Notes: generated by a model from the sequence alone, not told the origin. 64,000 bases of DNA from Candidatus Binatia bacterium (GCA_963664395.2 OY761159.2:1408001-1472000); one strand, 5' to 3'. Shown: positions 19,913 to 28,105, counted from the stretch's first letter. Numbers and translations are program-made.

Positions 19913-21175
19913 TCATGCGCCACCCTCTGCATCAGTCAGCAACGGAACGACAGACACCTTGCCGGTGAGGAGGTCTTGCATCAGGGCAGCTTTCAAATGG
20001 CTCTGCTTATTCAGTTCAGCTTGCAAGCGCGATATCATCTCAGTGTTCGCATCTAGCACTTTTGTAATATGGTTCTGCTCGTCGAGAGGGGGACTTGCCA
20101 CCAGAAGGCTTCGTATCGTAGGGAGGTTCAACCCGGCTTTCGCACCGGATTCATTGTGCCTTTCAAACTGGGATTGACCTGCTCGACTTTGAAGGAACCA
20201 GCCAACGAACCTTTGATCTACTTCGGGATCGGTAATCCGCACTAAAGCGATATGCTGATTGACATAGCCCTCTCCAAAGCCTTCAGGTATTACGCCAATC
20301 ATACCGAGGTCCGCCGTGACAGATATCAAAACATCACCGGGTACAACCAAGGTACGCAATCCCTCGGCGCGCACTGGTGGCCGTACAAAAACTGTATCGT
20401 CAAATCGTAGATTTATGTGGTCGCGTGTCAGGTTTCCAATGCGGAGAAATGCAGCACCTTCATCGCTGTAATACTTCGCCCACCCTCGTGCGCCACTCGT
20501 GACAAAATCCGAAATGGAATCAATGTTCTGGATATTCCACTCTACCGGAATTCGCCCTAGCGGCGAGTCCTTGAATTCGTGGGTTTCCTCAGAGCGGAGG
20601 TCTCCGTTTTCGTCGATACCGCGCGTGAGCAGGTCTTGCATCAGGCCGGTCTTGATGCGCTGTTGCTTGGCGATCAATGCCTCAGTCTGCTCAATGGCTT
20701 GATCTACTGTCGAGAGTATTTCGACGATTTTGGATTGTTCAAGCCTGCCACTAGGAGCTTCTATTGACCACTTGCTCAATTCAGACGAATTAATTGCCTC
20801 GAAGGTTGAACCCTGTGAAGCGCTTCGAAAATTTGCCTCTTGAAATTTAAGAAATTGCTCCAAATACCTTTGATTAACTCTTGTTCCAATGATGGCAGCC
20901 AAACCTCGGCCAATGATGTAATCCCGATCAGCGATGTTAAGTCGCCCGACTGGAGCTCGTACACTGAACAAGATCGAGTTTTTGGGAGCTACTTTCTTTG
21001 GTTGACTACAATAGACTGCATGGGTCGGAAACCGACTTCCAAATTCAGCGCACCCCTGTAGGAACGGTAAGCCAATTTCTTCATCGGAATAAAAATTTGA
21101 TTCAGGGGATTGCCCCATGATTAAATTCGCAACCTGTCCAAGAGGCTCATTTTTCCAACTTGTTCGCTCACTCAT
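19913..21175 (-). CDS. hsdS: Type I R-M specificity subunit S
   Basis: Two TRDs separated by [13 protein letters not shown]...[12 protein letters not shown]...[14 protein letters not shown]-terminal [18 protein letters not shown] overlap with hsdM. Confidence 0.93.
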
Positions 21176-23856
21176 GCTAAGTACCCCAACCCTCCCATAA
21201 ATCCATTGAGGGCCTTGAGCGTTGCTCCTCGCGCCTCCTCCATCTCTTGGCTGCTCACCGCGTACTTGTCCCACAGATTCTCAACGCCTGAAACCAGATG
21301 CCGCATCTCTGCATTGAGGTAGCGTTCGAGTTCGGTGCCGGCGATGTCGTAGAGCTTCTTGAGGATAAGGTGCTTGGCTTCGTCATCGGTTAGCTGGCCG
21401 TTGATTGCTTCCAGTACCGTGTCAGTCTTGGCGATGCGTTCCTCAAGTACAACCTTGTCTTTGTTTAAGGTATCGATCTTTTTGTTGTCGGTCTTGTCGC
21501 GTGGGTCCAGATTCGTAAGCTGGTCTTCGATCTGCTGAATGAGTCCCCGGCTTTCGGCTTTGAACCCTTCGCCGCCAAGACGTTTAAGTTGGATTTTGAG
21601 TTCCAATTCGTTGGTCTTATTCTTCGACAAGGCTCTGCTGACACTGATTTTATTTTCGATCTCCTTTATGGCGGCATCCTGTGCCTTGAGGTCATTACGC
21701 TCTCGCTGGGCGGATGCGCCCGCACTATCCTTCAGGTCATCTATGAGGGTTTTCAGAGCCTTCTTGATGACTGCGGCCGTAACCTTTTCGTCTTCTTCGG
21801 GTTCGTAGGAAGCCACCTCTTGCGCAGTTTCTACAGCCTCAGCCAGCTCGGTTTGGAGTTCGTTGATGTGAGTTTCCAATTCCTCAATGGCGTCCGCCTC
21901 GCTCTGGAAGAACTCGGTGATCAGATATTCGTCCGGGATGAGCGTGTGGTGCCAACCTAGTGAGACAATGGTTTTCAGGTCGTAACGATTTTCCTGCCAC
22001 CAGTTGACGAACACACCGGCGCTCTTGAACTCGTCCAGCACGCCCAGGGGAACGAGCTTGTCCTTGAGTGTGGTCAAAAGCTCATGCCGTACTTCCGGCA
22101 TTTTCCGACCGCTGTGATTGGCGCTCTCAAGCTCGGCGAAGTCGTCACGGGCTACGCTCCACCATTCCTTGAGGGCATTTCGGTGGGTCTCCAACGTATG
22201 CCCGACCGATTGGTCCACTTCGATGATCTCTTTAATATCGGCCTTGCTTGCAATCGACTCCTTGAATGTGAGGTATCCCGGTCGATCCGGCTGGAACAGC
22301 GTTTCACATTGAAGGCCAAACTTGTTGAAGTTGTCGCTTTGTGCCGAAACCTCACTTTCAGGGATGCCGCCGATCAGATGGGCCTGTACGTCTTCCGGTT
22401 CCGGCTCCGGGGTATTGTCTACATAGCGCCGAATGTTCAGATTGTAGTCGTTTTTGTCAGCGATTTCCGACTTGTCCACGAGTCGGCTGTATTTTAGAAT
22501 CTCGCGTTTGTTGGAGAACACGAAGTCGATTTTCTCCACGTCCTCCGGGCGCAGTTTGTTTTGATTCTTTCCTTCGGCATACTCCCGGTCCGCATTGATG
22601 AACAAAATCTTGCCACGCAAGGCATCGGGTTTGTTCTTGTTGCAAACGAGCACACAGGCCGGAATACCGGTCCCATAAAAAAGACCCTGCGGCAAACTGA
22701 TGATCGCCTCGATAACGTCGTCGTTTATCAACCGCTCGCGAATCAGCTTCTCTTTGCCACCGCGAAAAAGCACACCATGGGGCATGATCGTGGCCATGTG
22801 GCCGTCGCTCTTGAGGCTGGCCAGCATGTGCTGGACGAACATCAAATCGGCTTTCTTCCCGGTCTCTGGACACCACTCGCGGAAACGGTTGGTGAATTTC
22901 ATAGTGGCGCGGCTGTAGTTCTGCGAGAATGGTGGGTTGGCCAACACCCGGTCGAACTTGCGTATCTGTCCGTTTTCCAAAATCTGCGGGTCCTCCAGGG
23001 TGTCGCCGTTCTCAATGGTGAAACTCGTGATGTTGTGGAGGATCATATTCATATTGCAGATTGACCACGTGGTCCCGTTGGAGTCCTGCCCGTAGAGGGC
23101 CAGATTATTGGCGTTCTCGCCCCGCTCCTCGACGTACTGGTGGGCCTGGATGAGAAAGCCACCGGAACCCGCGGCTGGGTCGTATATCTCATTCCCTTCT
23201 GTGGGCTTGGTTAGCTGTACCAGCAGGCGCACCACCTCCGCAGGGGTATAGAATTCACCGCCTTTCTTGCCGGCGCTGTCCGCGAAGTACTTAATCAGAT
23301 ACTCGTAAGCCGCCCCAAGCAGGTCGGGGAACTCGAAATTGTCGTTGACCAGGACGAAGCCCGGCTGGTTGAAATGATCGAGCAGCTCTTTCCACTTCTG
23401 ATTCTCTATTTTCGTCCTGCCCTTGGCCGCGTTGAAATCAATGTTGTTCTTCAGCACCCCGGCCAGCGAGTCGTTCGCATCCTCGACCGCAGCAAGGGCT
23501 TTGTTCAGCATGTTGCCGATATCGTCTTTGAGGTCCTTGAGCGCCGGCACCAAGTCACCGTTCTCATCCGTCCATGTCTCGTGCCAGCGAGCACGATCGG
23601 GAACGAAGAACGTCTCGCCGTAGGCGGTCTTGTCCTCAACGAGTTGCGCCAGGAGATCAGGCTGGTCCTTGAGGTGGGCGTATTCCGCTCGTACCTGCTC
23701 GCGCTTGCGGTCGAACTCGTCAGACAATCGTTTCAGGAACAGCATACCGAAGATGAACTCCTTGAACTCGGAGGCGTCCATCTTGCCGCGCAGGATGTCG
23801 GCAGCTTTGAACAGGAAGGATTCGAGTTGGGCTAAGGTGATTTTTTCAGTCTGCAT
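21172..23856 (-). CDS. hsdM: Type I R-M N6-adenine methyltransferase subunit M with a long C-terminal extension
   Basis: [49 protein letters not shown]; about 894 aa. Confidence 0.95.
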
Positions 23857-23857
23857 A

Positions 23858-26800: not shown

Positions 26801-27979
26801 AATATGGTTCAGGTCTTCCAGAATCAATACCGAAGGAGGTAAGCCTCCAACACGGGCAAACACCATATCGAGCCGGCGGCAGGTTTCGTCTGCGTCAGTG
26901 TTCCGAAAGTCCACTATGAAGAATGTACCGGCCCGCGCGACGGCAACCGCCCGTGACACGATGGACTTGCCAAGGCCGCTGCCACCGACGAGCACGCCCA
27001 CACCGGAATTATCAATCGCATCCGTTACTGCCGACTCGACGGTGCTCCGGGCGATCATCCCCTGCGGAGCGGGAAGCCTAGTGCCGTCAATAAGCCAGCC
27101 TGTTTCTGTGACGGAAAGAGGATTGCCTGTGCCCAGACCTCCGCCGAGCACTCTCGCCAAGCCTGAGGCAAGTTGGGCAAGATCGTCTATAGAAGCGCGT
27201 GGTAGTGAAATACGGGTTGCCGTATCGATAACTTGGTAAAGCTCAGCCCGCGTAAGAACGCGTTCACTGGTCGTCCGGACAATACTTTTTTCCAGCACCC
27301 GATAGACCAAATGATCGACAAGTCCCTGCGCCTCTTGAGAGGAAAGTCTAAATAGGTCGCGGCCGATGACGACCAGCCGCGCTTCTAGCTCCTGACGAAG
27401 CGTTGAGAAATTTGGTTGACCGCAATCCCAGTGGATTCTCTCAATGAGGTCATGGCGGAGTGCTGCGTCGTCGCGATTCTTAGAGAACGTTCTTACGGAT
27501 TCATGGAATTTATCGCTCTCCAATATTGTGCGGAGAGGCGAGAGGTCCGCCCCCGCGGCGACCTCTTGCCAATACTTCAGCCCGGCCATCCCTGCCGGAC
27601 GGTCAGCAACAGCTTGTTCTGTTCCAATCTCCGATGTCGTGAAGAAACGGAGGTCAACCTGAATAGCGGGATTGCGCTCGGTAAGATCGATAAACGCAGC
27701 GACCGCATTGCGGACGCTTGGGCTATTCAACGTGATTGATCCGGACCTTTCTGTGTCCTTGACCTGAACGGCGTCGAGCGCCTGCCCCGCTATGATCGCA
27801 TAGTCTTCCGCGACTTCCAGGAAAAGCCGCCCATGCTCGTCGATATCGAGCCATGCCAGCGCGGTCGCTAGGGCCTGATACGCATACCCTCGCAGAGAAT
27901 CGACTGCTTGTCGCGCCGTGTCGCCCTGCGGGACAAGGCCAGCGGAAGGACCTGCGTTGAAAAGATCGTGAGAGTTCAT
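23858..27979 (-). CDS. Large Cap4-like nuclease + P-loop NTPase (STAND-like) + helical/TPR-like repeat protein (Avs/NLR-like defence candidate)
   Basis: N-terminal RGYAYQ...LEVAED...VQVKD; Walker A GGSGLGKS; Walker B LILED; GHPQL; long Ala/Leu-rich helical C-terminus. Alternative GTG start at 28000. Confidence 0.7.
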
Positions 27980-28105
27980 TATCAGCATTCCTGAGAGCAC
28001 AGCTCGAAACTAGCGCGGATGTATCACAAAACATTAGTTTGGTCTCAATCGCCGGTGAGTGCTGATGAAGAAGCTTACACGCGGAGCCCCAATCCTGATG
28101 TTAGC

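Follow-up and report, generated by a model that had tools for sequence, protein, structure and literature searches.

Effector genes embedded in type I restriction-modification (R-M) loci are known from the anticodon nucleases PrrC and RloC, whose genes lie in the hsd cluster; PrrC is held in check by the R-M complex, and inhibition of the complex by a phage peptide activates it. Receptors that join a Cap4 nuclease, a STAND NTPase and a tetratricopeptide repeat (TPR) sensor are known from the Avs systems and include the single-gene Avs3 (SeAvs3, structure 8dgc), which senses the phage large terminase. In the available part of Lee et al. (Nature 2026, PMC13581612), SeAvs7 is described as a Cap4-STAND-TPR protein that recognises the major capsid protein: it is autoinhibited in the apo state, forms tetramers through Cap4 when the target binds, in an ATP-dependent manner, and then cleaves double-stranded DNA (dsDNA); 589 STAND clades, 198 defence-associated, and 684 sensor clusters are counted there. 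The available parts of two other reports place defence systems within type I R-M loci, in Vibrio cholerae VPI-2 (PMC11411939) and in an RptR-regulated defence island (PMC12255303). Here, a gene of the Cap4-STAND-TPR plan is described from a stretch of 64,000 nucleotides (nt) of Candidatus Binatia bacterium (GCA_963664395.2 OY761159.2:1408001-1472000), hereafter the window, in which it lies at 23858..27979 on the minus strand, directly upstream of the hsdM gene of a type I R-M operon. With a probability of about 0.72, it is read as a stand-alone, single-protein Avs/NLR-like sensor-nuclease that sits as cassette cargo in a slot before hsdM and is not a functional part of the R-M system.

The gene was defined by its open reading frame (ORF) and motifs and encodes 1373 aa from an ATG at 27979 to a TAA stop codon at 23858-23860. 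An alternative in-frame GTG at 28000 would give a frame (23858..28000, minus strand) that is open over 1380 codons; the ATG is the likely start, judged from the sequence, because the database protein P0003 is 100% identical to the 1373-aa ATG form and because the start methionine of that form shows no variation across 20 relatives. An earlier note on this DNA had named five motifs in a protein of about 1370 aa, and all five were recovered: GYAYQ (residues 31-35), QVK (72-74), GGSGLGKS (332-339), LILED (385-389), and GHPQL (475-479), in ATG numbering. The same note had placed the TAA 1 nt before the hsdM ATG, and this was borne out by the junction, which reads ...GCG TAA T ATG CAG ACT GAA AAA..., with the hsdM ATG at 23856. 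In two public runs, X1 and X2, which come from two studies and one of which may be the window's own source sample, contigs span this junction with 0 differences, and in X1 the junction between the gene and the MNT gene upstream of it is spanned as well; the arrangement of gene and hsdM is therefore not an assembly artefact. When public runs were searched with the junction stretch, no RNA run was found among the holders listed.

For the analysis of domain architecture, the protein was folded in two halves (residues 1-600 and 560-1373) using alignments of 47 relatives that came from genome loci, and the models were compared with known structures using VIA-align Z scores and Foldseek. The model of residues 1-600 reached a predicted local distance difference test (pLDDT) score of 82.1, and that of residues 560-1373 (814 aa), which is all-helical, a score of 89.2; the latter agrees with the roughly 800 aa of helical repeats proposed earlier. 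Residues 26-256 (27212..27904, minus strand) are predicted to form a Cap4/DUF4297-type PD-(D/E)xK nuclease domain, as judged from the fold, a LmuA profile and a motif alignment. The closest structural match was the DUF4297 protein of HerA-DUF4297 (9c1m_G; Z 17.9, root-mean-square deviation (rmsd) 3.5, 202 residues aligned), followed by LmuA (Z 15.9), HamA (Z 13.4) and the Cap4 of the cyclic-oligonucleotide-based antiphage signalling system CBASS (6wan; Z 13.1). The PADLOC profile for LmuA matched residues 30-260 (E 1.7e-13) and was the sole PADLOC match of the whole protein, and a profile built from the first 280 residues found solved DUF4297 proteins at E 0.001 (8xav_G) and 0.004. The GYxYQ, the ED strand and the QxK align with those of solved DUF4297 nucleases, and the nuclease residues Q35, E55, E58, D59 and Q72 are invariant in the 47 relatives, with K74 kept in at least 90%. 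The N-terminus is thus predicted to have a nuclease fold, as the earlier note had supposed. By profile search it is best regarded as a distant relative of PF14130 (Cap4_nuclease/DUF4297) and not a member by hidden Markov model: PF14130 does not match the window protein at E≤0.01 and matches 14/47 relatives at that threshold, the best at 3e-4, while the NCBIfam model DUF4297_antiphage, whose cut-off is 300, gives a score of 15 bits.

Residues 296-600 (26180..27094, minus strand) are predicted to form a STAND NTPase module, in which a nucleotide-binding domain (NBD), a helical domain and a winged helix follow one another, as indicated by VIA-align, Foldseek and motifs (Walker A, G332..K338-S339; Walker B, L385-D389; and a GxP-like G475-H476-P477). 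This module matched Apaf-1 (3sfz) with Z 20.0 (rmsd 3.6 Å over 280 aligned residues), the archaeal STAND-TPR protein 6mfv with Z 19.5, the NB-ARC of NRC1 with Z 19.4 and MalT with Z 18.4, as against Z values of only 12-13.6 for classical AAA+ proteins. The P-loop residues G335, G337 and K338 are invariant in the 47 relatives and D389 is kept in at least 90%. The remainder of the protein (residues 601-1373; 23861..26179, minus strand) is modelled as a TPR-like solenoid, the presumed sensor, as supported by the model, Foldseek and a sensor profile. Taken together, the predicted architecture is a Cap4/DUF4297 nuclease joined to an Apaf-1/NB-ARC-type STAND NTPase and a TPR-like solenoid, and the earlier description of a nuclease-STAND-TPR, Avs/NLR-like protein agrees with the fold matches, the E..ED..QxK signature and the conserved P-loop. 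The protein has the features expected of a STAND protein (a P-loop with Walker A and B motifs, the NBD-helical-winged-helix order, and a C-terminal repeat domain) and those of Avs proteins in the broad sense (a defence-type effector fused to STAND, and genomic association with defence genes). No DNA-binding output domain is present in it.

Avs3 shares the three-part plan. Its chain 8dgc_A was the top Foldseek match for residues 1-600 (E 8e-9) and gave Z 16.0 over residues 26-514. No sequence relationship with Avs3 was detected, 8dgc being absent from the best 60 of 131 profile matches at E≤10; its solved chain has 2028 residues as compared with 1373 here, and it was not in the best 50 listed Foldseek matches of the sensor model. 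Avs7 has the same domain plan, as far as the available description of it allows the two to be set side by side. The nuclease fold and the GYxYQ / E..ED / QxK signature are also common to HerA-DUF4297, LmuA, HamA and Cap4; there, the nuclease is under the control of a separate HerA, of LmuB/C, of HamB, or of a cyclic-nucleotide-binding SAVED domain, whereas here a STAND NTPase and a TPR sensor are fused to it. PrrC and RloC resemble the window gene in that an effector gene stands in an hsd cluster. The domains of PrrC are unrelated to those of the window protein, however, and dependence on hsd is built into PrrC, whereas the window gene has homologs without hsd linkage and its hsd operon occurs without the gene.

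No model in PADLOC v2 represents the family, and neither Pfam nor NCBIfam has an entry for it; PADLOC-DB v2 (2023) predates families named later (Avs6-24). It was not found in six supplementary files of PMC13581612, a search outside which the large tables MOESM3 and MOESM4 fall, and it may well be among the clades or sensor clusters of Lee et al. A word-indexed search returned 466 relatives, and among the 120 listed nearly all measure 1350-1400 aa and the few that are named are all called 'hypothetical protein'; the database relatives P0004-P0025 are 72-87% identical to the window protein. When 1.84 billion representatives were searched with a profile of the sensor only, 1908 proteins passed E≤1e-3 and 918 clusters passed E≤1e-30. 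The top 150 sensor matches were either proteins of about 1350 aa, with the sensor at approximately residues 545-1360, or shorter fragments, and no other effector domain was seen among them. Across phyla the sensor has a mean column identity of 46% over 47 sequences. Copies on RefSeq plasmids are annotated as 'hypothetical protein', 'AAA family ATPase' or 'tetratricopeptide repeat protein', and an Atlas search with the homolog P0062 led to 'hypothetical', TPR, AAA_22/Cap4 and NB-ARC/TPR clusters.

The gene is accessory and moves horizontally. It is present as a single copy in its own genome and was found in 0/60 related genomes, including 0/27 of the same genus, and the family tree interleaves Binatota, Acidobacteriota, Latescibacterota, Gemmatimonadota and Pseudomonadota. 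Members lie on plasmids in 18 records, some of them conjugative; in phage records, tblastn gave no match to the family.

Comparison with congeners showed how the gene came to lie next to hsdM. Orthologous long HsdM proteins were found in 9 of the 27 same-genus genomes, and six of the nine loci were inspected in detail by mapping the window proteins (genomes are cited by G numbers, and loci by L numbers). The locus of G006 is syntenic with the window through dnaX, ybaB, recR, MNT, hsdM, hsdS, hsdR and the YgjP-like gene to orf201, and blastn breakpoints were located at window positions 23851 and 28136, between which G006 has 25 nt and the window 4,284 nt. The inserted segment (23852..28135, minus strand), which was delimited by these breakpoints and by joints in the public runs, consists of the gene and 156 nt of leader. 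The same space in G014 is filled by an intact HEPN gene of 130 codons (Pfam HEPN, 1.2e-27), the start of which overlaps the MNT stop and the end of which lies 8 nt before the hsdM ATG, and the cassette has therefore replaced exactly the HEPN gene of an MNT-HEPN pair. In G001 (L162, 2484-5778) the slot holds an IS630-like element and a full DRT4 reverse transcriptase (PADLOC Drt4, 7.5e-158) that ends 12 nt before hsdM, and in G022 (L163, 14829-15416) a 195-aa DRT4 remnant abuts hsdM. In G005 a 77-aa ORF adjoins hsdM, and beyond it are genes for an ORC/CDC6-like ATPase, an HD-CE protein and a C5 methylase. In G021 the hsd operon is at a different chromosomal site, behind a glyoxalase-family gene. 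One contig each in X1 and X2 represents the empty form, joining 23848 to 28136 and skipping 4287 nt, so that filled and empty forms coexist in the same public runs. The slot upstream of hsdM is thus a defence hot slot, which is occupied by HEPN, DRT4, a DRT4 remnant, the Avs-like gene, or nothing. Other type I R-M loci are likewise known to carry variable defence cargo, and two cargo-swapping slots are present here; as compared with those loci, the swap is seen at nucleotide resolution and with both alleles in the same metagenomes.

Two side observations concern these congener loci. The match of the window HsdM to its counterpart in G001 stops at residue 863, and HsdS gave no match there. In G005 (L161, 15734-19624) the ORC-CDC6-like ATPase has a Pfam match of 5.5e-100, neither it nor the HD-CE protein has a PADLOC match, and together with the C5 methylase they may constitute an undescribed conflict module.

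The 5' leader of the inserted segment (27980..28135, minus strand) was defined from the breakpoints and from leader alignments. Over about 110 nt it is 50-58% identical to the leaders of L001, L003 and L006, compared with 29-46% for 12 other loci, and the blocks GATTGAGACC, TTGTG..A.AT.C, GCTAGTTT and CTCAGGAA recur in the leaders of those three loci. Since the leader is shared in this way, the cassette seems to bring a 5' region of its own with it, with a putative function. Only in the window, L003 and L006 is the gene immediately preceded by an MNT homolog. In L006 a 41-codon ORF, which has no Pfam match, lies between MNT and the gene and is read as a putative truncated HEPN; MNT-HEPN pairs may be a recurrent landing place. 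The MNT-type nucleotidyltransferase of the window (MntA-like antitoxin; 28106..28489, minus strand), which was identified in library scans, is 97% identical to that of G006 over residues 18-118 and is native to the genus, and its last codons were changed by the insertion. As a dedicated partner of the Avs-like protein MNT was rejected, given this native origin and its restriction to three loci. An ORF of 103 aa at 27723-28034 was also considered, as a HEPN partner, and was discarded: it has no Pfam match and overlaps the conserved 5' coding sequence of the gene.

Neighbourhoods of the family were surveyed in a one-genome-per-species scan that yielded 66 loci with up to 10 kb of flank on each side, in which hsd genes were sought using tblastn with the window HsdM, HsdS and HsdR (E≤1e-5) and the nearest neighbours were also scanned against Pfam; the contexts of P0004-P0025 lie outside this survey. 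Genes for hsd were present in 2/66 loci (L002 and L011, both from Terriglobia), with weak HsdR-like matches at the edges of L018 and L065, and in 0/79 metagenome loci, of which 42 have more than 2 kb of flank upstream and 34 downstream. In L002 and L011, whose HsdM and HsdR are 75-76% identical to those of the window, the order is hsdM-hsdS-[gene]-...-hsdR-YgjP, the gene being in the other slot of the operon. All-versus-all clustering of 1180 flank ORFs from the 66 loci gave no family present in more than four loci, and thus no conserved partner. Nearest-neighbour ORFs matched PADLOC at E≤1e-10 in 24 of 122 cases, distributed over 20 of the 66 loci, of which L051, L053, L054 and L056 are near-identical copies and represent one event. 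These neighbours comprise type I, IIG and ISP R-M systems, HmaA/HmaB, LmuB-like SMC, PD-Lambda-4, PD-T7-1, SIR2, DRT-associated and PDC families; other nearest neighbours are nSTAND3/TIR, AAA_13, Schlafen, AbiJ, Mrr, RES and PIN proteins, and transposases and integrases are frequent. Linkage to hsd is therefore not a trait of the family, and the idea that homologs would consistently stand beside hsdM was not upheld, the two hsd-linked copies lying between hsdS and hsdR.

Several further observations were made in these loci. In L002 (8688-9880) hsdS is present as two ORFs of 133 and 248 aa, both of which match Methylase_S, and it may be frameshifted. The family member is disrupted by an inserted ORF in two loci: in L011 (11726-12841) this is a DDE_3 transposase by Pfam, and in L003 (12368-13279) it belongs to a three-member BLAST cluster of similar sizes. 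In L027 (14076-18026) a full-length PD-Lambda-4 gene (PADLOC E 0) follows the family member on the same strand after 35 nt, so that two different STAND receptors stand in tandem; PD-Lambda-4 is named Avs8 in the available part of Lee et al. (PMC13581612). A Bryobacterales contig (L041) carries a second giant ORF (632-4957, 1441 aa) 2.3 kb upstream of the family member, with a resolvase gene between the two; this ORF has no Pfam match at E≤0.001 and no PADLOC match at E≤1e-10, and it shows about 19% identity in the alignment and a very long tree branch. On pSYMBR3459, a conjugative symbiosis plasmid of Paraburkholderia phenoliruptrix (L147), an AAA ATPase and DUF4276 pair (5250-7162) is followed by the family member WP_015004466.1 ('hypothetical protein'), near which are genes for a PDDEXK nuclease, IS66 and a DEAD/DEAH helicase.

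The proposed mechanism follows from the architecture by analogy with Avs receptors. In the resting state, the solenoid and the NTPase would keep Cap4 inactive. The solenoid, on binding a conserved phage protein, would open the switch and lift the autoinhibition, ATP-dependent oligomerisation would bring the Cap4 domains together, and the active nuclease would degrade dsDNA, with the infection being aborted. As to arrival, a cassette of the gene and about 156 nt of leader took the place of the HEPN gene upstream of hsdM. No obvious Shine-Dalgarno sequence belongs to hsdM itself and all slot occupants end 0-12 nt from its ATG, for which reasons hsdM probably shares a transcript with the gene in the slot and is linked to it by translational coupling. 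Only exchanges that keep this spacing would survive, and the TAA-T-ATG junction could thus arise without any shared function, the outcome being, as we infer, co-expression without functional dependence.

Several points weigh against the stand-alone reading. The 1-nt junction with hsdM is also compatible with selected co-expression. Membership in any named Avs family is unproven because no PADLOC, Pfam or NCBIfam family model fits: the NTPase (residues 291-600) and the sensor (560-1373), scanned alone, gave 0 PADLOC matches at E≤1, and no Pfam or NCBIfam model scored above its cut-off, a sub-threshold AAA match being all that the Pfam scan of the protein returned. The solenoid matched CTR9, Ski3, IFT-A, APC/C subunits and IFIT5 in Foldseek (E 1e-4 to 5e-3), which are generic TPR matches and carry no information on ligand or target. 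The defence role, the trigger and the oligomerisation are proposed by analogy with Avs3 and Avs7. Finally, in the group of closest loci, which was fixed beforehand as those with at least 59% identity (L001, L002, L003, L004, L005, L006 and L011), five of the seven adjoin a methylase-based system on the same strand: the gene follows hsdS in L002 and L011, is separated by 68-98 nt from a preceding type ISP/IIG enzyme in L001, and is flanked by HmaA and HmaB in L004 and L006. Five of seven exceeds what island co-location would lead one to expect and leaves room for some functional or regulatory affinity; if the window is included, about four of the placements are independent. These loci are kin, however, and R-M systems, the commonest anchors of defence islands, anchor most of them; the adjacency is therefore treated as a lead and not as a result. 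The part of the earlier note's refuting proviso in which homologs show no linkage to hsd genes was largely realised, with the five methylase-adjacent loci as the caveat.

It is against this background that a coupling of the protein to methylation-based immunity, as a second-line sensor-effector that fires when R-M is inhibited by anti-restriction proteins such as DNA mimics or when a phage escapes through methylation, has to be judged. The tight junction with hsdM, the homolog that L002 and L011 carry in the hsdS-hsdR gap of an operon of the same hsd lineage, the placements beside Hma and ISP/IIG genes, and the precedent of PrrC as a back-up effector in an hsd operon all speak for it. Coupling is nevertheless unlikely, since hsd genes occur in so few loci, there is no conserved partner gene, nine congeners keep the hsd operon without the gene, the slot also accepts the unrelated single-gene systems DRT4 and HEPN, and filled and empty forms occur in the same runs; moreover, partner systems and gene position vary, which fits cargo better than a specific protein-protein interaction, and some R-M adjacency is to be expected of island genes in general. 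On the same observations, the earlier suggestion that the protein guards the R-M complex against anti-restriction proteins is not supported, given the missing hsd linkage, the other cargo in the same slot and the 4,284-nt insert relative to G006; of the claim that the gene is a member of the R-M operon, its position directly upstream of hsdM stands, and its belonging to the operon is not supported, in view of the nine orthologous operons without it. A narrower form, in which only the subclade of at least 59% identity has specialised to methylase-based operons (type I, beside ISP, Hma) as a built-in second layer against phages that beat or inhibit restriction, is likewise doubtful. The placements of this subclade keep the strand of the adjoining system, with about 1-170 nt to one of its genes, and members of the subclade may share transcription of the host system and, in the window, translation as well.

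If the stand-alone reading is kept, the nature of the trigger could still differ. The protein could be a STAND nuclease for defence whose solenoid senses a cue other than a phage protein, such as a nucleic-acid structure, an altered host factor or a small molecule. The generic TPR matches of the sensor include the RNA-binding IFIT5, and the sensor is unusually conserved across phyla, with its mean column identity of 46%; in the available part of Lee et al. (PMC13581612), moreover, host EF-Tu is built into the Avs7 complex, and four further anti-phage sensor clusters are given for which no phage-encoded activator was found. Such a cue is considered improbable, since according to the same part of that source Avs1-4, 7, 8 and 10-21 all sense a phage protein, where the trigger is reported, and nothing in the model suggests a nucleic-acid-binding surface. 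That the gene is not immune at all, being a STAND-type regulator, a housekeeping ATPase or a decaying gene in an island, is very hard to credit: some STAND proteins are regulators, and one of them, MalT, is among the structural matches (Z 18.4), but the catalytic and P-loop residues are conserved in the 47 relatives, the 1373-codon frame is intact and its length is kept across the family, the gene is absent from 60/60 relatives, many loci have defence or mobile neighbours, and there is no DNA-binding output domain.

Under the stand-alone reading, a large and widespread family whose members pipelines label as 'hypothetical', 'AAA family ATPase' or 'tetratricopeptide repeat protein' is given a name and a likely mechanism, and it becomes a ready candidate for Avs-type trigger screens. 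The locus also provides a nucleotide-resolved case of single-gene defence systems (Avs-like, DRT4, HEPN) replacing each other before hsdM, and this allele-level view of a defence hot slot is the more instructive part. For genome reading it holds a warning, in that tight operon geometry with an R-M gene can stem from cassette exchange and need not imply shared function.

The remaining genes of the operon are also on the minus strand. The hsdM gene (21172..23856) encodes a long form of 894 aa with HsdM_N and N6_Mtase domains. Residues 4-892 match PADLOC MTase_I PDLC03031 over profile positions 1-833 of 834 (E 4e-286), and congener orthologues align to residues 1-892/893 with 83-92% identity; the protein is long, as the earlier note had remarked, its length being a trait of a subfamily that this profile matches end to end. 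The C-terminal approximately 400 residues (about 490-894; 21172-22400) have no Pfam domain and in translation look like a charged coiled coil, and this extension is kept in the congeners, L002 and L011. The hsdS gene is listed as the ORF 19913..21274, and its real start is probably further downstream. The hsdR gene (15605..18784) and the gene for a YgjP-like metallopeptidase (14919..15602) were identified in library scans; the latter comes after hsdR in L002, L011 and the six congener loci, as it does in the window.

The second cargo slot is the hsdS-hsdR gap (18801..19814, minus strand), which was characterised by library scans and congener comparison and contains, on the same strand, genes for a Phd antitoxin (19536-19814), a PIN toxin (19138-19539) and a helix-turn-helix (HTH) protein (18801-19088). 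The gap holds Phd-PIN-HTH in the window and G021, Phd-PIN-HTH with PIN matched only over residues 1-51 in G014, Phd-PIN in G005, Gp49 and HTH_37 in G006, and nothing in G022. A 35-nt direct repeat (97%; 19052-19086 and 19871-19905) brackets the Phd-PIN cargo. One copy falls at the start of the HTH gene and the second a little past the hsdS stop, and G006 has a single copy; the repeat looks like the footprint of a cassette insertion.

Upstream of MNT are tRNA-Asn(GTT) (28745..28820, minus strand), just outside the island, and recR-ybaB-dnaX. Copies of a dispersed short repeat at 28549..28589 (plus strand) and 14831-14871, in direct orientation (41 nt, 93%), bracket the 13.7-kb island from MNT to the YgjP-like gene. 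The whole repeat, of about 90 nt (28549-28633 and 14831-14887), has 36 matches in the window's own genome, and in four public runs read depth over 28453-28700 exceeded that of the flanks by a factor of 100 to 1000 and many loose ends were seen. It may be an element resembling a repetitive extragenic palindrome (REP) or a miniature inverted-repeat transposable element (MITE), and it could help the hsd island to move, since the operon lies at other sites in G021 and G005. A promoter and terminator scan of 14500-29000 gave 9 promoter-like sites (7.3 expected) and 17 terminator-like sites (15.7 expected), counts that are uninformative, with no site of either kind in the leader. An Rfam scan of 13000-32000 gave tRNAs, a signal recognition particle (SRP) RNA and a sub-threshold plastid match, with none in the leader. 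The small SRP RNA (bacterial, 68 bits) lies together with tRNA-Ser(GGA) at 31714-31909, just past dnaX, and both are ordinary.

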